NCBI GenBank assembly: GCA_963722305.1
Contig: CAVRKE010000002.1
Location: forward strand, 522,678-586,677
Direction: 5' to 3'
Source of the DNA: Candidatus Levyibacteriota bacterium
GTDB taxonomy: Bacteria > Patescibacteriota > Microgenomatia > Levybacterales > UBA12049
DNA: 64,000 nt
Shown here: positions 1 to 52,021 of the stretch, piece after piece
Numbering within the stretch: the first letter of the stretch is position 1
How the letters are laid out: each line of letters opens with the position of its first letter
Made by a program: the position numbers and the translations under genes
Notes under the pieces: model-generated
Database searches by the model: none
What the model saw: the letters and a program-made list of their open reading frames with translations, nothing else
What the model was told of the DNA's origin: nothing

Positions 1-23
1 GTCTTTTATAAAAGCGGTAATGC

Positions 24-428
24 TTAAGGGGTTGAAAGATTAACGTTGGGGATATTTAAATTGGAAAGGGTGCCGATATTGAAGAATTGGAGGAGGAGGT
101 TAATGATAAAATAAGCCAAAAAGATCACCACTAAGCCGATGATAGCGGCAATAATATGCTCTCTGGCTTCGGCAACTTTGCTTTTGTCTCCGGTCGAGAT
201 TAGCCACCTAAATCCGCCGTAAATTAAGTAAAAGAGAGCTGCAATAACCGCAATTACAAACACCAATTGAATGGCAGCGCCAACCACGTTGCCAAAATTA
301 TTGGTGGACAGACTACACAAAATATTGAATTGTCCCCCTCCGCAGGTGTTTACTGATCCGGCGGCAAAAGCAGATGTGGCCAAAGAAAAATATGCTACTA
401 AAGATAATGGGAGAATAAGTTTTTTCAT
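24..428 (-). CDS. VirB2/TrbC-like conjugative-type pilin (signal peptide + two-TM pilin core)
   Basis: 134 aa. N-terminal signal peptide (MKKLILPLSLVAYFSLATSAFA) is followed by two hydrophobic helices flanking a short charged loop (…LIYGGFRWLISTGDKSKVAEAREHIIAAIIGLVVIF…), the architecture of TrbC/VirB2 pilins. Paralogous to ORFs 489..839, the C-terminus of 843..2318, and 17359..17763. Confidence 0.5.
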   Translation of the reverse strand: MKKLILPLSLVAYFSLATSAFAAGSVNTCGGGQFNILCSLSTNNFGNVVGAAIQLVFVIAVIAALFYLIYGGFRWLISTGDKSKVAEAREHIIAAIIGLVVIFLAYFIINLLLQFFNIGTLSNLNIPNVNLSTP

Positions 429-488
429 CTACTAATTAAATGCTAGTGCCTTTTTTGGCTGTTGTCAAGACCCATTTTAAGGCTAGCC

Positions 489-839
489 TCACGGGTTATT
501 GTAGTTAAGCGGCGCTGCACCGCTACCCAACAGAAAATTGTAAATAGCATTAATAATTAAAAAGGCGAAAAAAACAACCAATAAGCCAATGATGGCCCAA
601 ACAACCTTTTGTCTGGCGCTACTGACGCGTTGTTTATCGCCTTCGGACATCAACCAATTAAACCCTCCCCAGATTAAAAAAAACAAGGAAAGAAGAATTG
701 CTCCAACTAACAAAAGGTCAAGTCCGGTGCGGACAATTGTTAACAGGGGATCCGGCCCGCCTTCGGGCATGCCGCTGACACCGTGGATTTCTAGCGGTGC
801 ACCGTTAACACCCGGCACTGTTAAAGTAAGCAATTTCAT
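489..839 (-). CDS. VirB2/TrbC-like pilin paralog
   Basis: 116 aa. Shares the core motif with the neighbouring pilin (…LIWGGFNWLMSEGDKQRVSSARQKVVWAIIGLLVVFF… vs …LIYGGFRWLISTGDKSKVAEAREHIIAAIIGLVVIF…). In tandem with the adjacent pilin genes, with a 4-bp gap to the upstream gene. Confidence 0.5.
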   Translation of the reverse strand: MKLLTLTVPGVNGAPLEIHGVSGMPEGGPDPLLTIVRTGLDLLLVGAILLSLFFLIWGGFNWLMSEGDKQRVSSARQKVVWAIIGLLVVFFAFLIINAIYNFLLGSGAAPLNYNNP

Positions 840-842
840 ATT

Positions 843-2318
843 TTACTGGGCAAAACCCGGCAGCTGTAAAATGTTCACTCCGATAATCTGCAGAATAATC
901 AGCGAAAGGATAACAAATAATAACCCGATAATCGCAGCGGTGAGCTGGTCCCTGGCGTTTTTAATATTTTCCGGATTGCCTTGGGAAACCATCATCCGGT
1001 AACCGGAGATAATGATTAAAATTACGGCAATCCCGCCGGCAATACTAAGAATTAGTCCTAAAATTGCCTGAGCGATTTGGTCCGGAGAAGTGGTAATGTC
1101 TCCAATGGCAGTATCGCAGGTAAAAGTATTATTCGGTTCCGGTGTACAGAAGGGCTGGTTTGGGGCAGGGGGAAGTCCAATGCCCTGGAGATCATTAATC
1201 GACTCACAGTAGAATTCCCCTCCGGTTGTAACCCCTCCCTGTAAGCAAACATACCCACTGCAGCATCCGCCAGTGGCCCCTGGCGCGGCATTAGGAGCAC
1301 AAGGGGATGGGTTTTGTGGGGTTCCGTCAGTATTAGTGCCACAGGTGCCTCCACCATAACAGGAATATGTTCCCCCAGTGGTTACGCCTCCCGAACTGCA
1401 AATTTGTCCGGCGCAGCATGAGCCTGCTTGAGCCAATCCCGCTGTGACAGTGGGGTTACAGCTAGACGGGGGAATAGGGGGGTTGGAAGAGGAGTTGCAG
1501 TAATTTAGCGTGCTCACACAACCATATGTAGTATTTGGGTTGGTAGATCCAGCAGTATTGGTTACTACACAACTAAAGTATGTACAACAGCCGTGATTTG
1601 ACTTATTGTCATTTGGGTTACAGGAGGTTGGATTGTGGCCGTTAATGCAGGTTGCCGCAGTATAAACGCAGGCGTAATATTCTGGTGTATTATCAGCAGG
1701 AGGATTAGGTACATGGTGATAACAGGTATAGCCGTCGCAACAGGGATTGGGAGTACAGGAAGTAATATTAGTAGGGTTGGTGCAGGCACCCGGAGCTGAT
1801 GCACTAGAATAACAGCAGGTTGTCGCGCCTGTACAATCAGAGGTTGCCACTTCGCTGCCACCATTGCAGTCGTTTGGGTCTATACAGTTGCCGCCGTAGT
1901 CTCGTTTACAGAAAAGAGGAATGCAACAACTTCCACCTCCTACAGCTGAACAATAGCCTGTAGAGCCTACCATCTGGATGTATCCTGACTGGCACGCGGA
2001 GCCAGACTGACCAGGCTGACATTCCCCGCCCATTGCGCTGCAGGTATCTTCGCAGCAATAATGGGGGTTTGCGGGGTTTGTGGGGTTTGCACAAGCAGGG
2101 TCTGAAGTAGTAGTATAACCGGTAGGGCAGACCTCTCCGCCACCTAAACCATTGGTTGTCGAACAGCTATATGCTTGGTTAGGGCCGCAAGTACCGGCAA
2201 ATACAGATTTAACAGGAGCAAGAATACTTAAGAACAAAAAGATAAAAACAGAAGTGAATAAATAAATGAATAGCCTTCGCACAAGTTTATGATAGAACAA
2301 AAACTGAATAAAATGCAA
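843..2318 (-). CDS. Secreted cysteine/threonine-rich protein with C-terminal VirB2/TrbC-like pilin domain (pilin fusion)
   Basis: 491 aa. Long N-terminal signal/TM region, then ~380 aa very rich in Cys (many CC and CxxC), Thr, Gly, Asn and Pro. The C-terminal ~80 aa (…IAVILIIISGYRMMVSQGNPENIKNARDQLTAAIIGLLFVILSLIILQIIGVNILQLPGFAQ) matches the pilin core of the neighbouring genes and of 17359..17763, which ends …NVLKIPGFSP. Confidence 0.5.
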   Translation of the reverse strand: MHFIQFLFYHKLVRRLFIYLFTSVFIFLFLSILAPVKSVFAGTCGPNQAYSCSTTNGLGGGEVCPTGYTTTSDPACANPTNPANPHYCCEDTCSAMGGECQPGQSGSACQSGYIQMVGSTGYCSAVGGGSCCIPLFCKRDYGGNCIDPNDCNGGSEVATSDCTGATTCCYSSASAPGACTNPTNITSCTPNPCCDGYTCYHHVPNPPADNTPEYYACVYTAATCINGHNPTSCNPNDNKSNHGCCTYFSCVVTNTAGSTNPNTTYGCVSTLNYCNSSSNPPIPPSSCNPTVTAGLAQAGSCCAGQICSSGGVTTGGTYSCYGGGTCGTNTDGTPQNPSPCAPNAAPGATGGCCSGYVCLQGGVTTGGEFYCESINDLQGIGLPPAPNQPFCTPEPNNTFTCDTAIGDITTSPDQIAQAILGLILSIAGGIAVILIIISGYRMMVSQGNPENIKNARDQLTAAIIGLLFVILSLIILQIIGVNILQLPGFAQ

Positions 2319-2338
2319 GCCCTCCCGTGATTGCTGAT

Positions 2339-2725
2339 TTATGATTTTGGATTAATGAATGTTTTGCTTTTTCTGATAAGCCCTTGTAAAAGTGGCCCGA
2401 CGATATTTGATTGTTCAACTAAATCTTGAAAATCTTTCTCAGCCAAGTAGTTTATGTCTTTTGCGATTAATATAAAATTTTTAAGCTCGGACAATGAACC
2501 TTTTGCCAGATAATAAAACTGGACCTTCTCTTTGTAAGTTTGTCTACCGAATCCTTCAGCAATATTTGCGGTAATTGAAGCAGCCGCTCGTCGCATCTGG
2601 TCCACAAGTGAATATGTCTCTTCTCTTGGAAAACTTTTGGTAATTTTATAGGCCAAGATTACCAGTTTATGTCCTTCTCGCCAAACATTTAAATCTGTAA
2701 ATGTTTCTATTTTCCCGTTTTTCAT
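2339..2725 (-). CDS. Four-helix-bundle protein (23S rRNA intervening-sequence protein family, TIGR02436-like)
   Basis: 128 aa. Motif LVILAYKITKSFPREETYSLVDQMRRAAASITANIAEGFGR…LAKGSLSEL is the hallmark of the '23S rRNA IVS / four helix bundle' family. Confidence 0.6.
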   Translation of the reverse strand: MKNGKIETFTDLNVWREGHKLVILAYKITKSFPREETYSLVDQMRRAAASITANIAEGFGRQTYKEKVQFYYLAKGSLSELKNFILIAKDINYLAEKDFQDLVEQSNIVGPLLQGLIRKSKTFINPKS

Positions 2726-2763
2726 AAATCTTTAATCAATAATCTGTAATCTTTAAATTCACA

Positions 2764-4131
2764 TCAGGATGTGAATTTAAACCCGCGGCCTTTGGCGGTC
2801 TGGAGATGCTGTGGAGTATTGGGGTTTTCTTCAATCTTTTTTCTGACCCGGAAAATCAACTGGTCTAAAGCCTGGTCGGTTACACCCAAGGTAGTTTTGG
2901 CTTCTTTCCAAACAGCGTTAATAATTTCCTCCTTTTCCAGCACCCGCTCTTTGTTTTCCAGCATAAATTTAAGCAGCCGGTACTCAAGCGAAGTTAATTT
3001 ATCCGAGATTAATAGCTCGCCTTTGAGGATTTCTTGGGCTTCATTGAGCGAAAAGTGCTCATCCTGTTTTGAAAGTGTTTGTTTTTCTTTAATAAAATCC
3101 GCAAACAAAGAAATGCTTAACAGACCATTTTTAATCAGCCCGACGTTTTCCAGATAACGCAGTTCTTCAGTGTCGGAAGCCAGGGGTTTGGCGCCAACGG
3201 AGAGAAAATTCTGTTCAAAGGGAGTTAAATAATTCCAAATCGCGGCCAAGGTATTGCGGATGGTTTTTTGTTCGAGTAAGAATTTTCTCAGCAGCAATTT
3301 ATTCTCAAATTGTTGCTCGGTGGCCAACAACGCCTCAACCGATAGCAGCAATAAACTACTGTGCCCACCGGTTAATTGCAAAACCTCATCCAACAGTTTT
3401 GGCTCAATTTTTTTCTCGGTGATTTTCTCTAAATAGGAAACCCGGAATTTAATCCCCACCTCATCATATATCGGTAGGTAAATCACTTTGCCCACTACAT
3501 ATTCATAAAAGTCGGATAAAAAGCTGGCTTCCAGAATATCTTCCAGCGGCCGGTTGAGGGAAAAGACCACCGAAAAGCGGTATTTAGCCCTATTCCTTAA
3601 AATTCTTAGGTTGGCAAAAAAATCGCTGTCCACCACCGAAAGGTATTCTTCAAAGCGGTCAAACAAGAAAACGATGGTCAATTCTTTTTCCAGGGCCAGA
3701 TAATCAACGGTTTTTTTTAAGCCCTGAAACAAAACCAATTCGTCTTTAAACTCCAGGCTTTCTTTAAAAATCTGGTTGGCAACGGCGTATTCTGCGTCTT
3801 TTTTCCTTTCGCGCAGCGAATCAACCAAATTTAAAAAGATAAACTTTGTCGCATCAAGCAACGGCCTTTTTTTGATTTCGGAAAAATTTAAATAAACAAA
3901 ATGAAACCAACTTTGCCGTTCTTCGCTGACGTGTTTAATCCTGACGTTGCGGTTGTAAGCCAACAGCCCCAAGAAATTGGAGCGGCCGGCCCCGGGAACG
4001 GAAACCACTTGGCAGGAGCTGCCTTCTTTAATAAAACCCAAAATTTTTTCAATTTCCGCAAAACGGGTATTTTCCGGATACAGAGCTTCGAAATGGGCAG
4101 ATTCGATGGTTGCATTATCTAGTTGTTTCAT
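2764..4131 (-). CDS. ATPase-like (degenerate Walker A) protein with C-terminal OmpR/PhoB-type winged-helix DNA-binding domain
   Basis: 455 aa. N-terminal P-loop-like VSVPGAGRSNFLGL (Arg in place of the Lys in GxxGxGK) and Walker-B-like IVFLFDRFEE. C-terminal …LTSLEYRLLKFMLENKERVLEKEEIINAVWKEAKTTLGVTDQALDQLIFRVRKKIEENPNTPQHLQTAKGRGFKF fits the trans_reg_C (OmpR) consensus. Confidence 0.5.
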   Translation of the reverse strand: MKQLDNATIESAHFEALYPENTRFAEIEKILGFIKEGSSCQVVSVPGAGRSNFLGLLAYNRNVRIKHVSEERQSWFHFVYLNFSEIKKRPLLDATKFIFLNLVDSLRERKKDAEYAVANQIFKESLEFKDELVLFQGLKKTVDYLALEKELTIVFLFDRFEEYLSVVDSDFFANLRILRNRAKYRFSVVFSLNRPLEDILEASFLSDFYEYVVGKVIYLPIYDEVGIKFRVSYLEKITEKKIEPKLLDEVLQLTGGHSSLLLLSVEALLATEQQFENKLLLRKFLLEQKTIRNTLAAIWNYLTPFEQNFLSVGAKPLASDTEELRYLENVGLIKNGLLSISLFADFIKEKQTLSKQDEHFSLNEAQEILKGELLISDKLTSLEYRLLKFMLENKERVLEKEEIINAVWKEAKTTLGVTDQALDQLIFRVRKKIEENPNTPQHLQTAKGRGFKFTS

Positions 4132-4190
4132 GATTTAAAATTTCTAATTTTTAATTCCTAATTTCTAGTCAAATCCGAATTTAACAATAA

Positions 4191-4445
4191 CTAATGTTTA
4201 TTGTTACTAGATTTAATAATAGCATTAAATATGAGATTAAGCTCTTTTGCTTCTTGCCACAAGATTCTTGCTTCCTTTTTCGTCTCCGGTAAGGTTGTGG
4301 CGATTAACTGGTTAATAAGAGAATTTGTAATTGCGTTTTGGGAAATTTTTTTGCAAAACACAATAATACTCTCCGCAAATTTAGTAGTTCTTTCTTCTAA
4401 ATCGTATTTATTTGGGTTTTCTTTTATTGGCACTTGACTAGTCAT
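4191..4445 (-). CDS. Short four-helix-bundle (23S rRNA IVS family) protein
   Basis: 84 aa. YDLEERTTKFAESIIVFCKK…NSLINQLI matches the N-terminal consensus of the four-helix-bundle family (DLEERT.FA..II.FCKKL). Shorter than usual. The overlapping + ORF 4201..4437 has no recognizable features. Confidence 0.45.
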   Translation of the reverse strand: MTSQVPIKENPNKYDLEERTTKFAESIIVFCKKISQNAITNSLINQLIATTLPETKKEARILWQEAKELNLIFNAIIKSSNNKH

Positions 4446-4543
4446 TAGAAATTAATAATTTAGGATTTGTGTAACTAAATTGTAAACTTTCTGTAAGCTT
4501 AATATCAAGCTTCTACCGCCAACTTCTTTTAAACTCCCCTCGT

Positions 4544-7500
4544 ATGGAAAACGAAAATTATGTTGTCAAGCCGGTTGAAAAACCAGTTGTGCAACAAAAA
4601 CCAAATGAATTGACAAGCAGGCCCAATTCTCCTAAGCTGAATAGAGAGGGGAATATTTTTATGGCAGATACAGTAAACGAAAGCGCACCGACAGGTAACG
4701 GACAAGGGACATCGGATGTTAAAGCAACAGCTGAATCAGGTACTGGAACCGTAACAGCTGAAGATACAGAAGCCAGTGCCAAAGAAGCAAATTCTAACCC
4801 CGCAAAAACAGCAGCCAACGCTGAAGAAGCGGCCAGAGCTAGAGATGAAGAAGCCACAGCCAGAGAGGCAGCAGCCAGAGCCAGAGAGGAAGAGGCAGCC
4901 GGTGAAGAAGACGAAAGCGGAGAAGAGCCAACAGCCAAGACAGCCGGGGAAGACGAAAATACAGCTGAAGAAGCCACCCAAGAGCAGCAGGAGTGGGCAG
5001 CAGAAGCATGGACTTATTTAAATTTGTTAGGTGAGGAAGAAATTAGCGAAGATGACTTACAGGCGCAGCAAAAGAAAATAAGTAAAGGGATTGGTCCTAA
5101 CGGGAAAAAAATGACAATGGATGTTATCGCTAACACCGAATTGGAGGACGAAGAGCGCATCCGGGCAGTGGAAGTAATGCTGCAGCGCGAGAGCAATCCT
5201 TTTAGCGAAGAACAAAAAAAACTGCTGATTGCCGCACACGAAGTCGGCGCAAACGAACCAGGGCGTCTTCCCAACACCATGGCAGGCGCTTATAACTATA
5301 CACAGGAACAGTTAGGAAAGAAAATAAAAAAATTAAAAGAGGCGGGAATAGAGAGCGCAGGAGACCGCCGAAAATTAATCGAAAGCGGTCTGATGGGAAA
5401 GGGATTTAACATCGGTAAAACGGGCATTAATGATGCAGTTATTCTAAACGAAATTAATACGATAGAGTTAATGGTTAATATAGCTATCAGTCAAGAAGCA
5501 AAGATTGAACGGTTACGTGAAGCCATGGCAAGGCTGTCAAGCATGCCGCCTTCGGCAGATAAAGATATTGCCCTAAAAAGGACTAAATTTCATTTGATTA
5601 AAGAATCAATAATGGGTAAAGAAGCTGCCGAGGAGTCAAGACGAAAAGAACCAAAAATATGGGATGGGACACAGGGTTATCAATGGCCCGAAACATATTA
5701 CGAGAATCAATACAATAATCCTGACCGTAAGCTCCACGACAGTCTTCAGGATAACTTTAATAAGATGTTTGATAAGCTTTCGCCTCAGCATGGTGTTGAT
5801 GCAGGCTTAGTCGATTTTATTGTTAACCTGCCTGATTCAAAATTACTTTTTTCGCTTGTCAATAAAATCGCCGCTTTACCTTTGGAAACGGAAATTGCCG
5901 ATTATGAAATCAGTTTCTACGCCAATGCGGTTTTAGATAATATCAAGGAATCTTTATCCAAATCTGCTGCCGGTCCTTCCGTTGAGAGGAGAGAAAGGCA
6001 AACTAAGGTGAATAATCTCTTGGAAGCATACCGACATCTACACCAGATGAATAAATACATCGCCACCGATAATGCCGACCATTTTGCAGATGGGTCAGGC
6101 TCTATTCTGCCGGAGCATCTCCAGGCTTTGCTGGATGTTAAAGGTGTTGATGTGCTGATGAATTTATATGACTCGGGCTACATGAGTTTAATAACAGGAA
6201 CAGATAAATGTGTAACTGTTGCCAATGAAGAAAGGTTACTCGGTAAAGAACTGGAAGGCAGCGAGCTAAAACAGGCGGTTAACAATCTGGGCCGGGTAAG
6301 GTCTATCGGTTCAATCGAGGATCAAATACGCCATTTGGTTGATTTGGCAAGAACCAACCCTTTTCTTTCGGAATTACAAGGTATGACCGATGAGGAAATC
6401 CGTCACGCCATTGGTTGCGCCAGGGTTTTATATAATGATTCTTTACGGTCGGTGGAGGTAGTTTCCTTGGGTGAATGGCGAAAAGGTGCCGAACTTCGGT
6501 CGCCGCCTAAGGAACGCGCTGCCAGACTTTGGTCTCTTGGCTGGGAATGGAAAAGGTTTGAATCGGGCAAAGCCACCGGAGGAATGTGGGTATTAGACCG
6601 TATGCTGACGCACCACCAGGGACTGCGTGTCAAACAGGGTTGGGGGAAAACTTCGATTACCAGATTATCCGGAGGCAAAGATCTTAGAGACTTTGAACTT
6701 AATGGCTTACTCAACGGGGCGAGCATTTTTGCCACCTGGAGGACAGAGGGTACAATTATTGAGCAGGCACCAATAGTCATAGATGGTGAATTAACCACGC
6801 TTAGTAGATACATTCAAGCAGAAAAGGCAAAGAACGAGGAGCCTACTAATCCCCATAAGCTTAAGCCGGATGAGCTTTTAAGACACATCTTCTTGGTTGG
6901 TAACCAGTTAAAACCGGAATTCACCAACGCTTATGGAGTATTGTTAAAATTAGACGATGTTCTTCCTAAAGAACTCGATTCAAAAGAGCTAAAAGATGCT
7001 AAAAAAGCTGTCAGAACCGCCATCCTTAAACGAATGGCCGAGGAAACGCCGATGGCTTTGGCATTTTTAACGGCGGGGATGGATTTTGATTCCCAAAAAG
7101 GAAAAGTTCCGGCATTCCATAGAGATTCTCAGGGAAGACAGCTCACGCTAGATGATTTTCGAGATTTTGCCAAAACACTTAACCCTGACACAAATGAAAC
7201 TTACAGGGATTTATTACTAAAATTAATCACTACCAATGAAATACGCTTGGCCAGCATCAAAAACAACACAGTAGATTTGGGGCGTCAAGCAAAAGGGGTG
7301 TTGGGTCCGTCTTCGCCAATCTTAAACTTGAACGATATTATTTTTGATCCAAGTAGTGGTGGTGCAAAACAGGATTTTCAAGTAGAACTTAGTGGTGCTG
7401 AAAAAGAGCTCTTAGATCAAATTCAAGCTTATGGTAATGACGTGGCAGAGGAGTTGGCTGAGGTCCGTTTTCCCTATAACCCGGTAATGAATGACGTAGT

Positions 7501-8146: not shown

Positions 8147-8175
8147 AGTTTGTTATTGTTGTTCTTGTTCTTGTT

Positions 8176-9816: not shown

Positions 9817-9922
9817 ATCAATTATTAGTTTGTATTATTTTTTTGCTTTTGTCAACTTCGCTGTTAAATTGTTTACTATGTGTTGTTTTATCAAGTGGAG
9901 CGAGGTTCAAGGCCGTGCGACA

Positions 9923-9952
9923 TACTTAAGCCATTACCTCAAGGCTTAAGTA
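9923..9952. promoter_or_regulatory. 10-bp inverted repeat (tacttaagcc N10 ggcttaagta) in divergent intergenic region
   Basis: Perfect 10-bp arms separated by 10 nt, in the 280-bp AT-rich region between divergently transcribed genes 8176..9816 (-) and 10098..11504 (+). Confidence 0.3.
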
Positions 9953-10097
9953 CAATAAGATTAAAAATATGTAATATTCTTGTAATGTTTATGTCAAGCT
10001 AATTATTGAAACTCAGGCTACAATACTGCCTGTAAAAAAGAGAGATTGGTTTGACAAATTATTTAAAACTAATCTAGACTGGAAAGAGAGGATATTT

Positions 10098-11504
10098 ATG
10101 GAAGGAGCAATAGCAGCAGTACCAGCAGAAGTAGTAGCAGGAGTAGCAGTGAGCGCAGCGGTGCCGGTAGCAGCAGCAGGGGCAGAAGCAGCTGTTTCTG
10201 GTGTTGCGGCAGCAGCAGCGCCAGTGGTGGAAGCAGCGGTGGAAGGTGCTTCTAGCGCTGCGGCAAGTACAGCGGAGGCAGCTGCGGGTGTGACATCAGG
10301 CATTGCTGATGCGGCAGCCGGAGCAACCTCTGAGTTGCCCTTGGTCGGGGCATCTTTGACAGGAGAAGCAACCGTACCATTATTGAAAACGACAACCACA
10401 GCTGCCACAGACACTGCAGGTGCAGCAGCTGAAGTCTCTCCAGCTCTTGCAGGGCCTGCTGCAGATTTCATTCCTGCGCCAGCCGAACCGGCGACAACCG
10501 CCGAAGGCCTTGCGGCAAGAGTAGCCGATGTTAGAGACATGGTCAAAGATAGAGAAGGAGGAGACGGTAATGGTGGATCGGCTGACGCTGCTGCACTCGA
10601 GACAACAATAGATCAATCGGTTGGAGAGCAAGAAGCAACAGGAGTTGCACCGGTCCCTGAAAATGGCGGAGCAGCCCAAAACGCTCATCTTGCAGAAGCG
10701 CAAACCGCTGAAGCCAGAACGCAAAGAACGCAAGAATTAACAGAGAGCGTAAGAAATGGAACCGCGACAGATGCGGATCGCGCCGAATTGAATAAATTAA
10801 ATCAAGAAACAGCCTGGGCGGAAGAACACCGAATGTTAAAAGAGAGAATTTTAAAAGGAGAACCATTGTCAGATAAGGAACTGGCAAGGTTAAACAGCTA
10901 TGAAAAGAACGGAACTCCTGGAGAGGAAACTCCAGCGTCACAGGTGGAAGCAGTAGCTACGGAACCAGCTGCAGCGGAAGCCAAAGCGGGTGACGCAGCT
11001 CATGCCCAACCACAACCAATAGAAGGAGAAATACCGGGGAGACCAAGCCTTAGAACTAGGTGGACTAGTGAATTCAGACGAGCAAAGAGAGACTTGGAGG
11101 CAAAAGCCATAGCCAACGGTGTAAACATCAAAGATCCAAAAGTAAAACAACAGATAGAAAATGATGCTGCTCAACAGCGTTATGAGGCTGTTGTCGGAAC
11201 AACCCCGTTAACAGACGAAATTGCAAAAGATCAAGTTTATAAAAAAGCTTTCGGTAAACGATTAGATGATGCCAGAGTAGCACTAAAGCCGGGGGAGAAA
11301 ATTGACCTCGAAGCAATTCAAAGAGATGCTATAGCGGATTATTTGGAGCATTGGGATAAAGCAGCAGTTACGGAAAAAGTCAAAAGGTGGGTAAAAAGAC
11401 ATGGGAAAAGTTTGCTTATGTTATTAGCAGCGGTGGTTTTTGGGGGTGCAATTGAAACAGGAAAACAAGGAACCGAGCCTGCGCGCAATCCAGGTAGAGC
11501 ATAG
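10098..11504 (+). CDS. Ala-rich hypothetical protein with C-terminal TM anchor
   Basis: 468 aa. The N-terminal ~100 aa are almost entirely A/V/G/E/S. The middle is charged/coiled-coil-like. The C-terminus …SLLMLLAAVVFGGAIETG is hydrophobic. Antisense ORFs (10013..10546, 10380..10733, etc.) are artefacts of GCN-rich codon periodicity. Confidence 0.4.
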   Translation: MEGAIAAVPAEVVAGVAVSAAVPVAAAGAEAAVSGVAAAAAPVVEAAVEGASSAAASTAEAAAGVTSGIADAAAGATSELPLVGASLTGEATVPLLKTTTTAATDTAGAAAEVSPALAGPAADFIPAPAEPATTAEGLAARVADVRDMVKDREGGDGNGGSADAAALETTIDQSVGEQEATGVAPVPENGGAAQNAHLAEAQTAEARTQRTQELTESVRNGTATDADRAELNKLNQETAWAEEHRMLKERILKGEPLSDKELARLNSYEKNGTPGEETPASQVEAVATEPAAAEAKAGDAAHAQPQPIEGEIPGRPSLRTRWTSEFRRAKRDLEAKAIANGVNIKDPKVKQQIENDAAQQRYEAVVGTTPLTDEIAKDQVYKKAFGKRLDDARVALKPGEKIDLEAIQRDAIADYLEHWDKAAVTEKVKRWVKRHGKSLLMLLAAVVFGGAIETGKQGTEPARNPGRA

Positions 11505-11550
11505 TGTGGCGAGGAGATGGAATAAAAAACTCACTCCTTATTTTTGACTT

Positions 11551-12396
11551 TTGCTTTTACTCAGTCTATGCTTAGATTGTATGGAAAATAGGGAGAAAGG
11601 ATACGTTACCTTACTGCTTATAATCCTGATTGCCTTTGGTTTTTTATTAAGCGGCGGGTTAATGCCCCTGCTGCAACAGGCAATCACCAGTACAGACCGC
11701 TATCAGTTGGTAGACCGGCCAACCTTTACGCCTCATAATACGCTGCAGTTTTCGACTCTTAGCTTTGTCTATAACGCCCCTCCGGTGGTTTGTAACCCGG
11801 GGTCGAATTTTGGAGACGAACCAGGCATTCTCTATGCTTTTATGCCGGGGTCCAGCCAGTCCCTGACACCCGGCGGGCAAATAAAAGTCTGGTATACCGA
11901 TGAACACGCCTTGACCTTAGGGAAAAATCCGGGGGTGTCTCCTGTGCCGGACACTCACGTCTTGAGTAATCCTGGGGTTGGAGATACAACAGCCAGAGAC
12001 AGCAGTAACCTTCTTTATTATCCGGGTTTGTATATTACCGATATTACCAATGATGCGTCAAGTACAGCCGGGGATGCGCAAAACGGCGGAACAGGTATTC
12101 CGCCATCAATGGTCTACGGCTACTGGAAAGCGTTGGGGGACAGCGATCCTAATTGTGGCGGTGGCGACTGTAATTTACCAGCGGGGGCAGACCAATTCTC
12201 TTCCATTCCCAGCGCAGACCTTAACACTAACACTGGAAGCAGGGGAACGGAAACCGGTTTTCAGGCGGAAATAATCTGGAATGTTGACAGTTTAGGGCTT
12301 ACCCCGGGACACCAATACAGGGCACAGTTTGTGATTCATGATGGGGACAGAGACGGAGATATCGGCCTCGGCTGCGTTTGTCCAATCAACTTCTAA
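11551..12396 (+). CDS. Hypothetical exported protein (N-terminal hydrophobic segment; alternative start at 11581)
   Basis: 281 aa. MENREKGYVTLLLIILIAFGFLLSGG is hydrophobic with a pilin-like flavour but lacks the conserved Glu5. The remainder is a Gly/Asp/Asn-rich soluble domain ending …GDRDGDIGLGCVCP. Confidence 0.35.
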   Translation: MLLLSLCLDCMENREKGYVTLLLIILIAFGFLLSGGLMPLLQQAITSTDRYQLVDRPTFTPHNTLQFSTLSFVYNAPPVVCNPGSNFGDEPGILYAFMPGSSQSLTPGGQIKVWYTDEHALTLGKNPGVSPVPDTHVLSNPGVGDTTARDSSNLLYYPGLYITDITNDASSTAGDAQNGGTGIPPSMVYGYWKALGDSDPNCGGGDCNLPAGADQFSSIPSADLNTNTGSRGTETGFQAEIIWNVDSLGLTPGHQYRAQFVIHDGDRDGDIGLGCVCPINF

Positions 12397-12408
12397 AACA
12401 GCTTTCCA

Positions 12409-14775
12409 CTATTTGGCTGCAGCAATACTGATTGGAGATGGAATATTTGAGGATGGTTGAGCGGTTGACGTGGCAGGCGGTACAGACGGAGTCGGTTGGA
12501 TAACTCCGACTGTTTGACCATTCTGTTGAGCGGTTGTCGTTGGAACAGATTGCGGTGTGGCTAATTTTTGAAAAGTATACACTTCTTTTGTTTGGTCGAA
12601 ACCCACCACAATCGTCTCTCCGGCAACAAACTGCTTCTGTATCAGTAGTGTGGCGATCGGGTTTTCAATCACGGACTGAATAAGTCTTCGCAAGGGGCGT
12701 GCCCCATATATCGGGTCATAACCTTCCTTCGCCAGCTGCTCAAGCGCCTTCGGGTCAATAGTGAACATTACTTGTTGGTCAATCAAAAGCTTGGCGGTTT
12801 TTTGTAACTGGAGTTTGGCAATTTCCAGCATATGTTTTTGCCCGAGAGGATCAAACATAATCACATCGTCAAACCTGTTTAAGAGTTCGGGTTTGAAAAA
12901 TTTATGCAGTTCGTTTTCAACCAACGCTTTGACTTTTTTCAACTCCTCAGAAGAAACTTCATTTTTATTTTGCAATTCTTGTTGAATAAGGCTGCTGCCG
13001 ATGTTTGAGGTAGCGACGATAATCGTATTTTTAAAAGAAATCACATTACCTTTATTATCGGTTAGCCTTCCGTCTTCCAAAATTTGCAGTAAAATGTTAA
13101 AAACGTCCGCATGGGCTTTTTCCACTTCATCAAAAAGCACCACCGAATACGGTTTAATTCTGACCGCCTCGGTTAGTTGACCTCCTTCTTCATAGCCGAC
13201 ATATCCGGGAGGCGCACCAATCAGCTTAGCCACTTCGTGTTTTTCCATATATTCGCTCATGTCAAGTCGTATCATTGCCTCTTCTTTGCCAAAGAGAACT
13301 TCCGCCAGCGTTTTGGCAAGTTCGGTCTTTCCAACGCCGGTGGGACCTAAGAAGATAAATGAGGCAATCGGTCTAGTTACATTTGTCAAACCGATTCTGC
13401 CGCGGCGTACCGCCTCAGCAATGGCTTTGACGGCAACCTCTTGATTAATCAGGCGCTTATGAATTAAATCTTCCAGATGCAGTAATTTCTCGCTTTCGTC
13501 TTCGTTAAGTTTGGTAATCGGGATATTAGTCCATTTGCTAATCACCAACTCGATGTCTTGGCGGGTCACCTGGTTGGAGGTGCGCTTTCCGGACTCCGTA
13601 GAAAGCCGTACGTCTGCCGCTGCTTCATCCAGTACGTCAACCGCTTTGTCGGGCAGGTAACGGTCGCCTATATATCGTTTGGAAAGTTTTACCGCCGCCT
13701 CAATTGTCTCATCGGTGAAGACAACTTTATGAAACTCTTCGTACTTTGATTTTAGAACATTAATCATTTTTACCGCGCTTTCTTCCGGCGGTTCTTCGAC
13801 CAATACAGTCTGGAATCTTCGCTCAAAGGCCTTATCCTTTTCAATATATCTTCGGTATTCGCTAATGGTCGTACTGCCGATAATCTGCAGTTGTCCGCGC
13901 GCAATAAAAGGTTTAATAATGTTTGAGGCGTCCAACGAGCCCTCTGTTTGGCCGGCACCGATGAGCGTCTGAATTTCGTCAACAAAGAGGATGATTTTCC
14001 CTTCGGAGAGTTGCACTTCTTTGATTACCTTTCTTAATCTTTCTTCGAATTCCCCCCGGTGAGATGCCCCCGCCACCAGCGAGGCGATATCTATTTGGAT
14101 AATCCGTTTACCGATCAGTTCATGTGGGACTTTACCCTCAATAATCAGCTGAGCCAACCCTTCAACAATGGCGGTTTTTCCAACACCGGCGTTTCCGATT
14201 ATCACCGGATTATTTTTTATTCTGCGTAAAAGTATGTGTATGGTCCGGTCGATTTCATTAGTTCTTTCGGCTACCGGGTCAAGCTTGCCTTCTTCGGCTA
14301 ACTTGGTGATGTCTGTTCCGAATTCAAGCAGCACGGATTTATTACCAAAGTTATATTTGGTGGAGTTTGCCAACTTTTCCTGAACTTTTTCTTTTTGTAT
14401 TCCTTCTGTTGCCAGGATAGCGGACGCGTTAATGTCGGCCGACATAACAGCCATCAAGATATCTTCCGGCATCACAAAATCCATTTTCCTGTCTTTGGCC
14501 AAAATAAAGGCTTGTTCTAAAAGTCTCTTGGTGTCCTCACCAAGGCTTGGTTGGCCATCATATGTTCCAACTTGTTCCTTCGACTGAATTTCTCTGGCAA
14601 TATCCCCGGCTTTTAGCGAGAATTGTTCAATTAATTGAAAAATTTCCTGATCGTATAAAAGGCCTAAAAGCAGTTGTTCCGGTTGAATTGTCGGTTGTTT
14701 CATGCGTATGCTTTCTTTCTCCGCGGCCGCCAATATCTGAAGTGAGCGCTGGTCCAAATGCGTTAAGACGGTCAT
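12409..14775 (-). CDS. clpC: ClpC/ClpB-family AAA+ chaperone ATPase (two Clp_N repeats, two AAA+ modules)
   Basis: Two Walker A motifs ([15 protein letters not shown] and [15 protein letters not shown]). Clp_N repeats ([16 protein letters not shown]…; …[15 protein letters not shown]…). The ORF track extends to 14931 (840 aa), but the Clp_N domain starts at the internal Met (MTVLTHLDQ…), giving ~789 aa. Confidence 0.7.
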
Positions 14776-14927
14776 GTCCTCTTTGGTAGTAGGGGAAACA
14801 ACGGCAGTAGCTGCCGGAATAGTTGGAGCTTGGACGGAAACATTATCCGTTTGCTGGTTAACCGGTTCTGTTTGTGAAAAAAGATTATCTAACATAATTA
14901 TATTATGCGCAGAAATTGTCAAAGCCG

Positions 14928-17354
14928 TCAATTAATTTTGGTTTTATCATTCTCATCAGCTTCAACCTCTTCGCTTAGTTCCTTGGCCTGTGCTTTTTTT
15001 GCCCCCTTTTCAACCAAAGTTTCTTCACTTTCTTCTTTCTTTGCCAATTCCTGCAGGGCCGATTTTCCCGCCGCAAGCTTGGCCTTAAGATAAGCAATAA
15101 CTTCTGTCTGCGAAAAGCCCCCGATTAAAAGGAAGGGAAGAATGTTGGAGACCGAAGAAAGGCCTTCCCGAACTTTGACCGGATCGGGCGAAGAGAGTAA
15201 AGTAATTGCTTCCGAAACGGTAGTTCCGTCATCTTCAATCCAGGATTTCCTGTCGGGATATTTATCGGGAGGGATATCAATTTGCAAATAATTTTCCAGC
15301 CATAAATCCTTTACGGCTTCATAGTCATCAAAGCCCACTGTTTGTATTTGGTTAACGGTAGGAAGACTAACAGTAGGAGTTACCTGCGGTGCGCCCGAAG
15401 CGGTTGCTTCTGCGGTTTTTGCCGCTTCCGGCTTTTTAACGGTATTTGCGGCAGAAAGAATAGATTTTGCCAAGACATCTCCTTTGGTTGTTTCGTCGGT
15501 AAGTTTTTCACGCAAGTTTGTGTAATATTGTTTTTCGGCAGAGGTAGTATTTACCTGCGGGTTGGCAATTTTCGCAAGAGCCTCCGTTGTTTGTTGTAAC
15601 TGTTGAGTTCCCTCCTGAGTGCGTTTTAACCTGGCACTTTCAAACTTGACAATATCACGCATGGTCGGTATAGGGAAGCTGATTAAAGTTGTTGTCGGCC
15701 TGGTCAAAATTTCGGGTTTAAATCTGGCGATCATTTCTGTTCGGTTGGTGGTCATTTTAGTCTGGCGGTTGTTTACGGTTGAAGTAGAGATATTATTTTG
15801 TTGAATCTGATTAACTGTTTGGTTTTGTGTTTGGTTTTGTTGGGTCGTACTGGCAAATTGCGTATGCGACGTTTGTCCAGCCTGTTGCCCGGTTTCTTGT
15901 TGCGTTGGAATGTTTATTGTCGCCCGTCTTAGATTAAGCTCTTTTTGTATTACGCTTTGCTGTTTTTGTTGAATCTGATTAACTGTTTGGTTTTGTGTTT
16001 GGTTTTGTTGGGTCGTACTGGCAAATTGCGTATGCGACGTTTGCCCAGCCTGTTGCCCGGTTTCTTGTTGCGTTGGAATGTTTATTGTCGCCCGTCTTAG
16101 ATTAAGCTCTTTTTGTATTACGCTTTGCTGTTTCGGTATCTTAAGAGCTTCTCCGGCTGGGAATTGTCCAACCGGAAGAGGACCAGGTGATTGGGGTTTT
16201 TTTAAGAATGCCAAACCATTATTGATAAGGTTATTTTGAATGTTATTTATATATGGAGGCGCGTGGTTTTTCCCGAAATCGTAATTTGAGAGAAACTCCA
16301 AGAGTATTTGCAAGAGAATAAAAGGCATAAGAATTGCTACCCATAACATCAGTAAAGCAACGATAAATTGCGTAAATGTTTCATTGTTGTTAAGACTGTT
16401 GGTAAGGCTTAGTGTCTGACCGGGTCCTCCTACTAGAATGCTGATGGCGGTCGGATAAGTAAGTCCGACCGGGTTTGCAAAATTAAAAGGCAGGACAAGA
16501 ATATTGCTTTTCCAAATAATAACGATTGCCGATAAAAACAAGGAAAAAAGCGGAGCATATAATAACCACCTCAAAAACTCATTCCTGATTATTTTCACTG
16601 TACTTCTGGTCGGGAAATAGAAGATGATAATCGGCAAAAGCGGAGAGGCAACGAGAAAAAACCACAAAATAATTTTTCTAACCATGAGAATAAAACCGAT
16701 AACATAAAAAGTCACCGAACTCAGCTTGATAAGAAGAAGAGAAATAAATGCGGGCTCGTCGAAAGTTGCCCCAAATCTCCTAAAGCCGGAAAAGTTCTCA
16801 TAGGAAAAGCCGATGTTGACGACATCTTTAGCGGTAATAACACCGTTACCGGATACATTAAAGAAAAATGCCTGAAAGATGTCTGCTATTTGATATAAAA
16901 ATCTGGCAATAGCAAAAGAAAAGGTAGCAAGTAGTAATACAATAATAAATTTTTTGACAAAAACAAGAACTCCTACATTACTGCCGCCGCTTATTATAAT
17001 TAAAAAAGCGGCAATTAGAATAAGCAAAACGAACATTGCATAGGTGATATTTCTAACCGCAACCCAGACATTTATTAGCGGAGCATCCAGGTAATCCCAT
17101 TTATAATTAGTAAGCATCCAATCCATAAAATTTGCCGATCTAGATGCTGTTTCTCCTAAGAAAGTTACCGTTGGATCCTGGACCCAATCTCCGGAAGCAA
17201 GGGGAGCTACCATTGGAGTCGGCGTTGGAGTCGGAACAGCCTGAGCAAAGGCAGTCGGAGCGGACAAAGTAAAGAAGGAAAGCAAAGACCGTTCTTTATA
17301 AAAGGGGAGAATAAAAAGTAGTCCTAGGATACCGATAAAAAAAATACGTTTCAT
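14928..17354 (-). CDS. VirB6/TrbL-like polytopic membrane protein paralog with Gln/Thr/Asn-rich tandem-repeat tail
   Basis: 808 aa. Signal peptide, PTPTPTP linker, extracytoplasmic domain, ≥6 TM helices sharing motifs with ORF 8176..9816, then a long hydrophilic tail containing two near-identical 56-aa repeats (KQQSVIQKELNLRRATINIPTQQETGQQAGQTSHTQFASTTQQNQTQNQTVNQIQQ). Confidence 0.4.
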   Translation of the reverse strand: MKRIFFIGILGLLFILPFYKERSLLSFFTLSAPTAFAQAVPTPTPTPMVAPLASGDWVQDPTVTFLGETASRSANFMDWMLTNYKWDYLDAPLINVWVAVRNITYAMFVLLILIAAFLIIISGGSNVGVLVFVKKFIIVLLLATFSFAIARFLYQIADIFQAFFFNVSGNGVITAKDVVNIGFSYENFSGFRRFGATFDEPAFISLLLIKLSSVTFYVIGFILMVRKIILWFFLVASPLLPIIIFYFPTRSTVKIIRNEFLRWLLYAPLFSLFLSAIVIIWKSNILVLPFNFANPVGLTYPTAISILVGGPGQTLSLTNSLNNNETFTQFIVALLMLWVAILMPFILLQILLEFLSNYDFGKNHAPPYINNIQNNLINNGLAFLKKPQSPGPLPVGQFPAGEALKIPKQQSVIQKELNLRRATINIPTQQETGQQAGQTSHTQFASTTQQNQTQNQTVNQIQQKQQSVIQKELNLRRATINIPTQQETGQQAGQTSHTQFASTTQQNQTQNQTVNQIQQNNISTSTVNNRQTKMTTNRTEMIARFKPEILTRPTTTLISFPIPTMRDIVKFESARLKRTQEGTQQLQQTTEALAKIANPQVNTTSAEKQYYTNLREKLTDETTKGDVLAKSILSAANTVKKPEAAKTAEATASGAPQVTPTVSLPTVNQIQTVGFDDYEAVKDLWLENYLQIDIPPDKYPDRKSWIEDDGTTVSEAITLLSSPDPVKVREGLSSVSNILPFLLIGGFSQTEVIAYLKAKLAAGKSALQELAKKEESEETLVEKGAKKAQAKELSEEVEADENDKTKIN
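15795..16135. repeat. Two-copy ~168-bp near-perfect in-frame tandem duplication inside CDS 14928..17354
   Basis: The sequence ttgttgaatctgattaactgtttggttttgtgtttggttttgttgggtcgtactggcaaattgcgtatgcgacgtttg… is repeated head-to-tail (copies begin near 15798 and 15967), with a single visible mismatch (gtttgtcc vs gtttgccc). Confidence 0.8.
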
Positions 17355-17358
17355 TCCA

Positions 17359-17763
17359 TTAAGGGCTAAAGCCTGGAATTTTTAAAACATTAACCGTGAT
17401 AACTTGAATAAAAACCAAGGCAAAAACTGCTAATAAAAGACCGGCGATAGATGAATATAGATATCTTTTTCCTTTCCTAACCTGCATGGGGTTTCCTTGA
17501 GAGGTCATCAGGATGTAACCTGCGTAAATAATACCAAGCACAGCAACGCCTCCTATGAGTGACAGCCCAATACCATAAAATTTTTCGACAAATCCAACCG
17601 GGTCATTGGGAATACATCCAAAATCGGTAAGTGTCTCATTGACTAGGCAGTCCATGCTATGTTTAGCGTAGCACATTTTTGTCAATGGTTCTAGATAGCA
17701 CGAAGTTTCTAAAGTGGAGAAATTTAAATAAGTTAGTACATAGGGCGGGATTTGGGCGGGCAA
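17359..17763 (-). CDS. VirB2/TrbC-like pilin paralog
   Basis: 134 aa. The C-terminal half (…GIGLSLIGGVAVLGIIYAGYILMTSQGNPMQVRKGKRYLYSSIAGLLLAVFALVFIQVITVNVLKIPGFSP) is alignable to the C-terminus of 843..2318 (…ISGYRMMVSQGNPENIKNARDQLTAAIIGLL…NILQLPGFAQ). Confidence 0.5.
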   Translation of the reverse strand: MPAQIPPYVLTYLNFSTLETSCYLEPLTKMCYAKHSMDCLVNETLTDFGCIPNDPVGFVEKFYGIGLSLIGGVAVLGIIYAGYILMTSQGNPMQVRKGKRYLYSSIAGLLLAVFALVFIQVITVNVLKIPGFSP

Positions 17764-17962
17764 GATGGGATGATTTTCGAACTACTCATTGGTTAGAGAT
17801 TATAAACTATCCGGAAATTACACTACAACAAACGCAGCAGTTACTTAATTTCGTAGTTTAATTATACCCCACCATGCTTTACGCTATAATTTGAGGTTAC
17901 GTAGTTCCCCCTGATGTTGAGCTTCAGCGAAATCCTGAGCTTTGCGAATGGAGACGACGTTA

Positions 17963-17997
17963 GAGACCAGGAATCTTTTGTCAAGACCCCTGGTCTC
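17963..17997. other. 9-bp-stem hairpin (gagaccagg N17 cctggtctc) just downstream of IS110 transposase stop
   Basis: Perfect inverted repeat directly read. Lies 20 bp beyond the transposase stop on the minus strand. Could be a terminator or an IS-end structure. Confidence 0.35.
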
Positions 17998-18016
17998 AAA
18001 GTGTTACCGATGTATC

Positions 18017-21976: not shown

Positions 21977-22052
21977 TGTTTTATTATCTCAGAGATTTAA
22001 AAAATTTAAAAGAGTTTAGATAAGAGGGTCTAATAATAGACTGAGGAAAAGC

Positions 22053-51973: not shown

Positions 51974-52021
51974 AACAGGGAATCTGCAATTGGCTGATTA
52001 TACTATAGGTATATAAGAATA

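Follow-up and report, generated by a model that had tools for sequence, protein, structure and literature searches.

The type IV secretion systems (T4SS) of Patescibacteria contain a VirB4 from a clade related to MPF-FATA, together with TrsD and PrgI, are located near dnaA and dnaN, and are rarely accompanied by relaxases (PMC12102498; the review PMC12857230 agrees), with most published systems lacking both a coupling protein and a relaxase near virB4 (PMC12102498). In Microgenomatia and Saccharimonadia, they include arrays of 2 to 11 VirB2 genes (PMC12102498; reviewed in PMC12857230), which have been proposed to help with adaptation to differing host strains, and an origin-proximal chromosomal arrangement has been published for Microgenomatia, where VirB6 homologs were found to be “scarce” and extreme divergence was suggested (PMC12102498). 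In a cultivated Patescibacterium, the T4SS belongs to the small number of systems for which essentiality in epibiotic life has been shown, and what it does there has been called completely unknown (PMC11665869, PMC12857230), with a “potential to elaborate conjugative pili” being the literature's wording (PMC12857230). Here, we analyze a stretch of 64,000 nucleotides (contig CAVRKE010000002.1, positions 522,678 to 586,677; hereafter, the window) from a bacterium of the Candidatus Levybacteria, the first ~18 kb of which an earlier note, made from the sequence alone, had read as a T4SS-like, pilin-rich island of a small-genome bacterium. Our results support a T4SS-like pilus system of a Patescibacterium and indicate that, very probably, two T4SS gene sets are joined here on the core chromosome, namely, an origin-proximal, MPF-FATA-like arm (window positions 1-9816) and a separate module (10098-17763) that contains a trio of genes for a VirB2-like pilin, an extended VirB6-like protein, and an Hsp100 unfoldase (Table 1).

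The locus most resembles the described Patescibacteria T4SS (Southlakia epibionticum ML1 and Nanosynbacter lyticus TM7x; PMC12102498), with which it shares a chromosomal MPF-FATA-like VirB4, a TrsD-like protein, a PrgI/VirB3-like protein, tandem divergent PF18895 pilins, a VirB6-like protein, and no relaxase nearby, as well as the dnaA/dnaN position of Microgenomatia. Unlike the surveyed Saccharimonadia systems, it belongs to Levybacteria (Microgenomatia), and essentiality is known only for S. epibionticum; unlike the surveyed Patescibacteria systems in general, it carries two divergent VirB6-like families, C-terminally anchored proteins of 1200 and 2528 aa, and a winged helix-turn-helix (wHTH) regulator. 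With MPF-FATA conjugation systems (CTn2/CD1110 of Clostridioides difficile; Prg/Pcf of pCF10), the locus has in common a CD1110-family VirB4, a PrgI-family VirB3-like protein, a TrsD-like split VirB4 N-terminus, and a monoderm envelope. However, the Gram-positive systems lack VirB2 pilins (PMC12857230), and, unlike CTn2 and pCF10, the locus shows no relaxase, coupling protein, or PrgB-type adhesin and is chromosomal at oriC rather than part of a mobile element. Likewise, in the Rickettsiales rvh T4SS and in the systems with VirB2 arrays in Anaplasma and Bartonella, the genes are split over separate chromosomal loci, and VirB6 occurs as several paralogs, some of them “extended” by large hydrophilic domains (PMC12857230). 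The tandem divergent VirB2 copies of the Anaplasma and Bartonella arrays, which have their counterpart here, are believed to alter the surface in contact with the host. Unlike this locus, the rvh and Anaplasma/Bartonella systems are diderm and of the MPF-T type, with VirB7, VirB9, and VirB10. We know of no Hsp100 linkage reported for any of them.

Origin-proximal T4SS arm

No VirB4, VirD4, or VirB11 is encoded in the window, as had been stated from the sequence, and none of the ten open reading frames (ORFs) of at least 388 aa in window 19-64 kb matched a T4SS ATPase family. Two explanations had been offered, that the ATPase genes lie upstream of position 1 or that the system is non-canonical, and the former guess was right. 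We reached the upstream DNA via exact-protein look-ups to public contigs of run ERR11594402, one of which (L096; ERR11594402_120982) is identical to window 1-1402 (1402/1402 bases) and another (L001) to window 2409-15825 (13417/13417 bases); here and below, L-numbers denote related or identical loci that were compared with the window. Outward from window position 1, the genes encode a fifth pilin-domain protein (290 aa), a 221-aa protein with five transmembrane (TM) segments on the opposite strand, a DUF5663 protein (119 aa), a 2528-aa protein, a PrgI and CarboxypepD_reg protein (407 aa), a TraC-like/TrsD-like protein (224 aa), VirB4 (627 aa), and proteins of 585 and 228 aa, followed by dnaN, dnaA, yidC, and khpA. 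virB4 starts ~11.97 kb and dnaN lies ~16.3 kb upstream of window position 1. The VirB4 scored 389.8 bits, against a cut-off of 325, on NF045971 (CD1110 family of VirB4-like conjugal transfer ATPases). Precomputed annotations assign PF12666 (PrgI) to the 407-aa gene and PF26593 (TraC-like) to the 224-aa gene; the PrgI ortholog in L011 scored 35.4 bits (cut-off, 27), and the TrsD-like protein, at 25.5 bits far under the cut-off of 200 for NF041427 (TrsD), matched the N-terminal part of the VirB4_plasma model (E 1.2e-12). With VirB4, a TrsD-like protein, and PrgI/VirB3 all found upstream, the notion of a non-canonical, VirB4-less system does not hold.

Other features of this flank can be noted in passing. 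The 2528-aa protein is C-terminally anchored, and its N-terminus has no signal-like hydrophobic stretch; its gene is intact on the Logan contig, while in a second assembly (L098; ENA contig_42841), it is fragmented together with dnaN and dnaA, probably through long-read frameshift errors. The 585-aa protein beyond virB4 (L099, 12564-14321) corresponds to two genes in L011 (515 and 282 aa; 20792-23184), which indicates a gene fusion or fission; neither has a family hit.

The same arm is present in other Levybacteria, where orthology was confirmed in L008, L010, and L011 by tblastn and hidden Markov model (HMM) searches. In the groundwater loci L008 and L009, the order is NUDIX, a 560-aa member of the family of the window's 546-aa polytopic protein, a 904-aa protein on the other strand, a 23S rRNA-intervening-sequence protein (IVP), the wHTH regulator, four pilins, PrgI, an IVP, a TraC-like protein, and VirB4. 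In L010 (GCA_023379505.1), NUDIX is followed by proteins of 592 aa and 942 aa (the latter on the other strand), the regulator, four pilins, a 231-aa protein (other strand), DUF5663, and a giant protein. L011 was found through a 50% relative of the upstream 2528-aa protein (a scan of genome contigs found only a 46% relative on a 13.5-kb contig, L012, which was uninformative, so that the genome studied here is not among the GTDB representatives), and it extends through the replication genes, as follows: 499 aa, 1070 aa (other strand), four pilin genes with an IVP after the first, 279 aa (other strand), DUF5663, a 2340-aa giant, PrgI, a TrsD-like protein, VirB4, proteins of 515, 282, and 150 aa, dnaN, dnaA, rnpA, yidD, and yidC. 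In L008, L010, L011, and the genome studied here, the 546-aa family lies inside the VirB4/pilin-array locus. The origin-proximal Patescibacteria T4SS locus of Candidatus Levybacteria (Microgenomatia) has its distal arm in window 1-9816, and, since the cluster adjoins dnaN-dnaA and its gene order is conserved in other Levybacteria, it is core chromosome and not the accessory island that had been suggested.

These data also bear on whether the region could be a mobile conjugative element or a horizontally acquired accessory island, which we regard as highly improbable. An intact IS110-family transposase gene at its edge, called correctly in the earlier note (both IS110 domains are matched; Table 1), and a VirB4 of the CD1110 family (NF045971), which is typical of Firmicutes conjugative elements, would fit such an origin. 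However, dnaN-dnaA occupies one flank and housekeeping genes the other, the order is conserved in several Levybacteria, the GC content of the cluster (0.40-0.49) is within the window's own range, and relaxases occur in only ~100 Patescibacteria genomes (PMC12102498). Further, no match to a relaxase, a coupling protein (VirD4/TcpA), or an integrase was obtained in the ORFs of 1-18 kb, in the ten ORFs of at least 388 aa of 19-64 kb, or in several upstream genes. An origin from an integrative and conjugative element (ICE) or a plasmid was rejected on the same grounds, namely, the core position near the origin, the conserved order, and the lack of relaxase, coupling protein, and integrase matches in the scanned ORFs. 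The IS110 transposase itself is not part of the secretion system.

Pilin array and companion genes

All four of the small or fused proteins proposed as VirB2/TrbC-type pilins within ~18 kb pass the gathering score of PF18895 (T4SS_pilin; 26.6 bits), with 44.7 bits for 24-428, 31.1 for 489-839, 44.2 for 843-2318, and 30.3 for 17359-17763, and in a hydropathy scan, all have the paired hydrophobic TM segments of a two-helix hairpin. It is this family, and not TrbC, that they match: PF04956 found one ORF only (489-839), at 15.3 bits and below its cut-off of 27.9. The NCBIfam Mbov_0395 pilin-like model gave 26-33 bits (below the cut-off of 40), and the mycoplasma ICE pilin-like model NF045849 gave sub-threshold matches. 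In an alignment of the four, the polar loop between the hydrophobic segments and an I-G-L motif in the second segment are conserved. An HMM built from them detected no further copy in window 19-64 kb; given the PF18895 hits, the hairpins, and the lack of another copy in the remaining 46 kb, the clustering of pilins is real. Type IV pili, Tad, and competence pilins were rejected as candidates, as the small proteins match the VirB2-type family and not prepilins. In total, five tandem PF18895 genes make up the T4SS array, three of them inside the window. The earlier note had described its combination of genes as no textbook operon, although VirB2 arrays were already on record (PMC12102498, PMC12857230).

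The array members differ in architecture. The pilin at 24-428 is predicted to have a signal-like TM segment followed by a two-TM hairpin, and orthologous pilins hold the same array position in L008, L010, and L011. Its ORF has the best pilin score of the four, and its product is not on record, having been skipped by the gene calls on the identical public contig; hence, pilin counts in public annotations may be underestimates. In the pilin at 489-839, the hairpin spans residues 42-60 and 79-97. The 843-2318 protein combines a signal-like N-terminus, a ~380-aa domain with 9% Cys, and a C-terminal VirB2-like hairpin, and its positional orthologs (385-442 aa) come first in the arrays of L008, L010, and L011. 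Cys-rich extensions were seen on two pilin-domain proteins, N-terminal to the hairpin in 843-2318, with repeated C-x-n-C-C, and on both sides of it in L002 1444-2316; such proteins could be tip or adhesin pilins in a system without a recognizable VirB5.

The regulator next to the array had been described as an ATPase-wHTH protein, of which the second half stands. It carries an OmpR/PhoB-type winged helix at its C-terminus, to which its PDB matches are confined, and in L008 and L010, orthologs (55-58% identity) are encoded directly upstream of the pilin arrays. Sequence searches of Pfam, NCBIfam, and the PDB revealed no ATPase in the uncharacterized N-terminal 370 aa, where the candidate P-loop looks degenerate by eye (GAGRS), and we rejected the ATPase assignment as unsupported by these searches. 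The regulator had also been described as flanked by four-helix-bundle proteins. That on the array side is indeed a PF05635 protein, and the 84-aa ORF on the other side, tried as a truncated IVP gene, was rejected, having no Pfam hit and no BLASTP similarity to IVP proteins. Genes for IVP/bAvd-like proteins occupy varying positions among the T4SS clusters of Levybacteria (window 2339-2725; L008 14527-14898 and 20243-20620; L011 6617-6991), which suggests independently inserted small elements rather than fixed components. No reverse transcriptase turned up among the genes scanned or annotated around the IVP genes, although no search was aimed at it.

Convergent with the VirB6-like gene of the arm lies that of the 1200-aa protein, for which the proposed C-terminal anchor was confirmed as a single predicted TM segment; it has no N-terminal TM segment and belongs to no Pfam or NCBIfam family. 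A search of 1.84 billion representative proteins yielded only 157 relatives. At the equivalent position, L011 encodes a 1070-aa protein with 24% identity (E 9e-43), and the position is held by a 904-aa protein in L008 and a 942-aa protein in L010. The 1200-aa protein is a fast-evolving positional partner of the VirB6-like gene. Within it, residues ~190-290 recur at 35-49% identity in dozens of otherwise unrelated proteins of 230-1650 aa, and no Pfam family covers this segment, which looks like an undescribed mobile domain.

VirB6-like proteins

VirB6 is the proposed pilin-loading platform of T4SS. The window encodes two candidates, proteins of 546 and 808 aa, which had been called paralogous VirB6/TrbL-like membrane proteins. 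Neither matched a TrbL/VirB6 model in Pfam at E<=0.1, nor any in NCBIfam, and profile searches of both families against PDB sequences gave nothing meaningful. The relationship emerged at the family level. When the 808-aa family was scanned member by member, PF04610 (TrbL) matched in 17/50 (best E, 2.5e-7), and several homologs carry precomputed PF04610 or PF19590 (TrbL_3); homologs of the 808-aa protein are abundant and, where the source is named, come from Candidatus Levybacteria or other Patescibacteria, including Saccharibacteria (for instance, the 1235-aa protein P0019). The 546-aa family has >900 hits and no Pfam annotation, and PF04610/TrbL matched in 0/41 members. By BLASTP, the two window proteins have one motif in common (E 1e-4), and hhalign aligned the two family profiles over the first helices (91 columns) with 97.7% probability and an E-value of 1.8e-12.

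Structural models point in the same direction. The 808-aa protein begins with a 7-TM domain and ends with a conserved helical domain (residues ~545-800), and the Q/T-rich linker that joins the two is disordered; in the AlphaFold2 model from its family alignment (predicted local distance difference test [pLDDT], 72.4), the TM and C-terminal domains are well modelled and the linker is disordered. Its top Foldseek match in the PDB is TrwI/VirB6 of R388 (8rtd_L; probability, 0.99; E, 0.11; target TM-score, 0.51). For the 546-aa model (pLDDT, 67.4), the three best Foldseek matches are TrwI chains. Both proteins have at least five TM helices and, in the predicted models, a fold resembling solved VirB6. 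Both have their best structural matches in TrwI/VirB6 of R388 (7o3v, 8rt9, 8rtd), which the titles of PDB entries describe as the membrane base of the stalk, and in the Legionella Dot/Icm protein DotA (9ngy). Unlike TrwI and DotA, with which sequence identity is 8-16%, the 808-aa protein adds a ~450-aa C-terminal extension, and no VirB5 partner was found. The 546-aa protein is also the only polytopic protein of VirB6 size in the T4SS-arm loci, as judged by a hydropathy scan.

From these family hits, profile alignments, and fold matches, we conclude that the 546-aa and 808-aa proteins are both putatively VirB6-like, that they are distant relatives rather than recent paralogs, and that the term “extended VirB6,” as used in PMC12857230, applies to the 808-aa protein. 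The 546-aa family is, further, a good candidate for the VirB6 component missing from the Microgenomatia survey. In the linker of the 808-aa protein, a 168-bp tandem duplication (2.0 copies, 99% identical) doubles a 56-aa Q/T-rich block; the short-read contig L001 begins just downstream of this repeat (window 15825), where the assembly may break.

Pilin/VirB6-like/Hsp100 trio

Although clp, the 808-aa gene, and the fourth pilin had been placed in a single gene set with the array, window 10098-17763 is a module separate from the T4SS arm, and probably older. A scan of JGI metagenome contigs with the alignment of the 808-aa family yielded 80 loci (64 distinct at 95% nucleotide identity); the denominators below are loci with enough flanking sequence. 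A pilin HMM match lies immediately upstream of the 808-aa homolog, on the same strand, in 70/72 loci, and a Clp gene (55-82% identity) lies downstream on the same strand, at most 1.6 kb away, in 58/60. Within 8 kb upstream, dnaK was found in 35 of 40 loci, while virB4, TrsD, PrgI, the 546-aa family, and the regulator were found within 8 kb in 0/80. Annotated neighborhoods of 808-aa homologs with 35-56% identity agree: a gene of 98-101 aa precedes the homolog, with PF18895 wherever Pfam matched, and an Hsp100 of 806-932 aa (Clp_N-AAA-AAA_2) follows it. Three of the four annotated contexts (L005-L007, L013, L014) have hrcA-grpE-dnaK-dnaJ upstream and nusA downstream, and L003/L004 have neither. 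The trio occurs together with the 546-aa family on at least one contig of genome size (863 kb), which indicates that the trio and the T4SS arm normally coexist at separate loci.

As listed, the trio ORFs of the window follow one another with a 4-nt gap and then a 4-nt overlap, although for the pilin and clp, the first-listed start is possibly too far upstream; the pilin's start codon is uncertain, with orthologs called at 98-99 aa. The trio pilin is 73% and 65% identical to its orthologs in L003 and L005, compared with 56% and 37% for its VirB6-like partner and 31-49% for the array pilins. A few 808-aa family members (L067, L060) lie beside four to five pilin genes, with no Clp within 8 kb in L067, and could represent arrangements midway from the trio to a complete pilin array.

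Two further genes complete the module on its arm-facing side. The 468-aa protein had been called Ala-rich and tail-anchored; it is 22% Ala and has no family hit, a 423-aa gene lies at the equivalent position in L003, and the tail anchor is only probable, as the C-terminal hydrophobic stretch is short and under the hydropathy threshold. The 281-aa protein is 50% identical to a 265-aa gene of L003/L004 and was present in 4/80 metagenomic loci. The block 10098-17763 is situated between the 546-aa gene and IS110, the 197-aa ORF, and NUDIX; in L008 and L010, NUDIX directly adjoins the 546-aa gene. From this synteny, we infer that a rearrangement with IS110 at the breakpoint may have put the module beside the T4SS arm.

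The third trio gene encodes the ClpC-like AAA+ unfoldase that had been recognized from the sequence, with Clp_N, AAA, AAA_lid_9, AAA_2, and ClpB_D2-small, i.e., an N-domain and two AAA modules. Its best solved relatives are Staphylococcus aureus ClpC (677 bits) and ClpB (672 bits), and it is below the NCBIfam cut-offs for ClpB (886.6 versus 1232), ClpA (696.9 versus 993), and ClpV1 (675.1 versus 885). The M-domain coiled coil is missing: ClpC 425-460 (~35 residues) and ClpB ~400-515 have no counterpart, which breaks the alignment to either protein into two stretches. The ClpP-docking loop is also absent, with ELQNKNE and gaps aligned to RFAGFGG of S. aureus ClpC and no x-G-F motif in the loop. 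There is, in addition, a ~55-residue N-terminal extension and a Pro/Ser/Thr-rich C-terminal tail. The missing M-domain and ClpP loop suggest a ClpP-independent unfoldase without the usual DnaK/adaptor control element. By sequence, the protein appears unusual for a housekeeping ClpB/ClpC, which does not in itself prove a secretion-related role. ClpV is a dedicated secretion-system unfoldase that works without ClpP. With ClpV (TssH) of type VI secretion, the protein shares the class-I Hsp100 build of an N-domain and two AAA+ rings, the lack of a ClpP-docking tripeptide, and the association of its gene with those of secretion-related membrane proteins; unlike ClpV, it falls short of the ClpV1 cut-off and scores higher on the ClpB model (675 and 887 bits, respectively), has no type VI secretion genes around it, and would have only a hypothetical functional link to secretion.

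What, then, does the near-constant company of Hsp100 and VirB6-like protein signify? One explanation, which we regard as plausible, if somewhat short of probable, is inherited synteny, whereby the insertion of a pilin/VirB6-like pair, long in the past, would have separated dnaJ from a housekeeping Hsp100 gene of the heat-shock operon, the product of which has no specific secretion or pilus role. Hsp100 genes are commonly found in heat-shock regulons, hrcA-grpE-dnaK(-dnaJ) is positioned just before the pair in 35/40 loci, often with nusA after it, and in 16 of 58 loci, another gene intervenes between the VirB6-like gene and clp, and in the other 42, clp lies within 600 bp. However, the intergenic distances in the trio are operon-like. 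Further, the Clp linkage outlasts the loss of the dnaK linkage (in the window, L003, L042, L060, and L073), the Hsp100 is atypical for a housekeeping ClpB/ClpC, as described above, and in some relatives, a second AAA_2 Hsp100 is encoded a few genes further on. A search for CIRCE (the HrcA operator) with up to 3 mismatches found none in the window, which thus offers no support for control of the trio by HrcA.

Alternatively, the trio could be an autonomous machine that operates without VirB4, with the Hsp100 as the motor that extracts or unfolds pilin or other substrates at the VirB6-like platform. The neighborhoods would fit, given virB4, TrsD, or PrgI within 8 kb in none of the 80 loci and an Hsp100 in 58/60, as would the lack of a ClpP-docking loop, as in ClpV, and the large, conserved C-terminal domain of the extended VirB6, which is confidently modelled and could dock a partner. 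Yet, every known T4SS uses a VirB4-family ATPase (PMC12102498, PMC12857230), and the 863-kb contig has the trio alongside the VirB4-associated 546-aa family, so that no VirB4-free case has been shown. We therefore consider such autonomy quite improbable. More broadly, that the trio is a functional unit, with the Hsp100 working directly at the VirB6 platform, whether as a dedicated T4SS assembly/turnover factor or as the motor of a VirB4-independent device, seems to us unlikely. In the literature that we searched on the combination of Clp, VirB6, and pilin, the trio appears to be unreported.

Returning to the reading of two joined T4SS gene sets, a mechanism can be outlined from what is established for T4SS and from the architecture of R388, where the base of the stalk is VirB6. 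Pilins would insert in the membrane as helical hairpins, and a VirB6-like oligomer would form the membrane platform for pilin extraction and for the assembly of a pilus or channel, both driven by VirB4, which would supply the energy together with its split TrsD-like N-domain and PrgI/VirB3 anchor. The divergent pilins, including the Cys-rich fusion, would diversify the surface that meets the host cell, and the wHTH protein, encoded immediately upstream of the array, is its likely regulator. By analogy with the multiple VirB6 and VirB2 paralogs that Rickettsiales carry at scattered loci, the trio would most likely contribute a second VirB6 platform and its own conserved pilin to the same VirB4 machine, with the presumably co-transcribed Hsp100 serving as a chaperone/unfoldase for the assembly or turnover of these membrane components.

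Several points weigh against this reading. First, the functions of the proteins rest on sequence and models, and Levybacteria are uncultivated. Second, neither VirB6-like protein alone attains a curated HMM cut-off, the Foldseek E-values are 0.1-0.2, and both AlphaFold2 models are of moderate confidence. Third, the DNA read yielded no homolog of a VirD4-type coupling protein, of VirB8, or of VirB1, and the large C-terminally anchored proteins have neither signal peptides nor an assigned role. Finally, the trio was never beside virB4 in 80 other loci, such that its T4SS membership rests on the homology of two proteins rather than on context, and the Clp adjacency could simply be inherited from the heat-shock operon.

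Gene layout and other features of the window

The gene set of window 1-18964 (Table 1) derives from a mechanical ORF listing and translation. The GC skew is positive and climbs across the whole window, which fits a leading strand heading away from a nearby origin. Consensus scans were not enriched for promoters (38 versus 28.4±5.8 in shuffles) or terminators (29 versus 23.5±4.8) and are a hint only. The ten ORFs of at least 388 aa in 19-64 kb comprise five housekeeping genes (two class-A penicillin-binding proteins, SpoIID, a P-type ATPase, and GT87) and five without a Pfam match. The two penicillin-binding proteins (773 and 733 aa), each with a transglycosylase and a transpeptidase, lie in tandem on the minus strand (49652-54223).

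Table 1. Genes and repeats of the T4SS arm, the trio module, and the adjoining IS110-NUDIX segment
Feature	Position in window	Strand	Basis or remark
VirB2-like pilin, 134 aa; third array gene counted from the regulator	24-428	-	PF18895
VirB2-like pilin, 116 aa	489-839	-	PF18895
Cys-rich pilin fusion, 491 aa; first array gene	843-2318	-	PF18895 at residues 410-479
Four-helix-bundle protein (IVP/bAvd-like), 128 aa	2339-2725	-	PF05635, 124.1 bits
wHTH cluster regulator, 455 aa	2764-4131	-	PF00486, 64.8 bits, residues 378-453
84-aa ORF	4191-4445	-	Called as a gene on the public contig
C-terminally anchored protein, 1200 aa	4544-8146	+	TM segment at 1166-1184
Putative VirB6-like polytopic membrane protein of the T4SS locus, 546 aa	8176-9816	-	Profile-profile alignment and fold
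Ala-rich protein, 468 aa	10098-11504	+	Composition
281-aa protein with an N-terminal TM segment	11551-12396	+	Conserved beside clp in close relatives
Class-I Hsp100 (ClpC/ClpB-like), 840 aa; third trio gene	12409-14931	-	Pfam
Putative extended VirB6/TrbL-like protein, 808 aa; second trio gene	14928-17354	-	Family hits and fold
168-bp tandem duplication in the linker of the 808-aa gene	15796-16133		Tandem Repeats Finder score, 669
Conserved VirB2-like pilin, 134 aa; first trio gene	17359-17763	-	PF18895
IS110-family transposase, 315 aa	18017-18964	-	PF01548, 75.7 bits; PF02371, 98.6 bits
197-aa ORF	Between IS110 and NUDIX		No family
NUDIX	19992-20420

Significance for Levybacteria and Microgenomatia

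This kind of T4SS is already in the literature (2020-2025), and the locus adds little to the general picture; it does, however, provide an example from Levybacteria in which the whole course from dnaA to the cluster's end is resolved. As far as we checked in the literature searched, what goes beyond the published survey are the candidate divergent VirB6 families in Microgenomatia and the conserved trio in the dnaK neighborhood. The former provide two candidate families for the VirB6 that HMM surveys found to be scarce in this group (PMC12102498), and the latter raises the question of whether a Clp-type unfoldase takes part in assembling or powering T4SS-related membrane structures. Were the partnership of Hsp100 and VirB6 to prove true, an AAA+ unfoldase would have been recruited to a type IV secretion component, and the divergent VirB6 proteins that had seemed “scarce” in Microgenomatia would have been identified.

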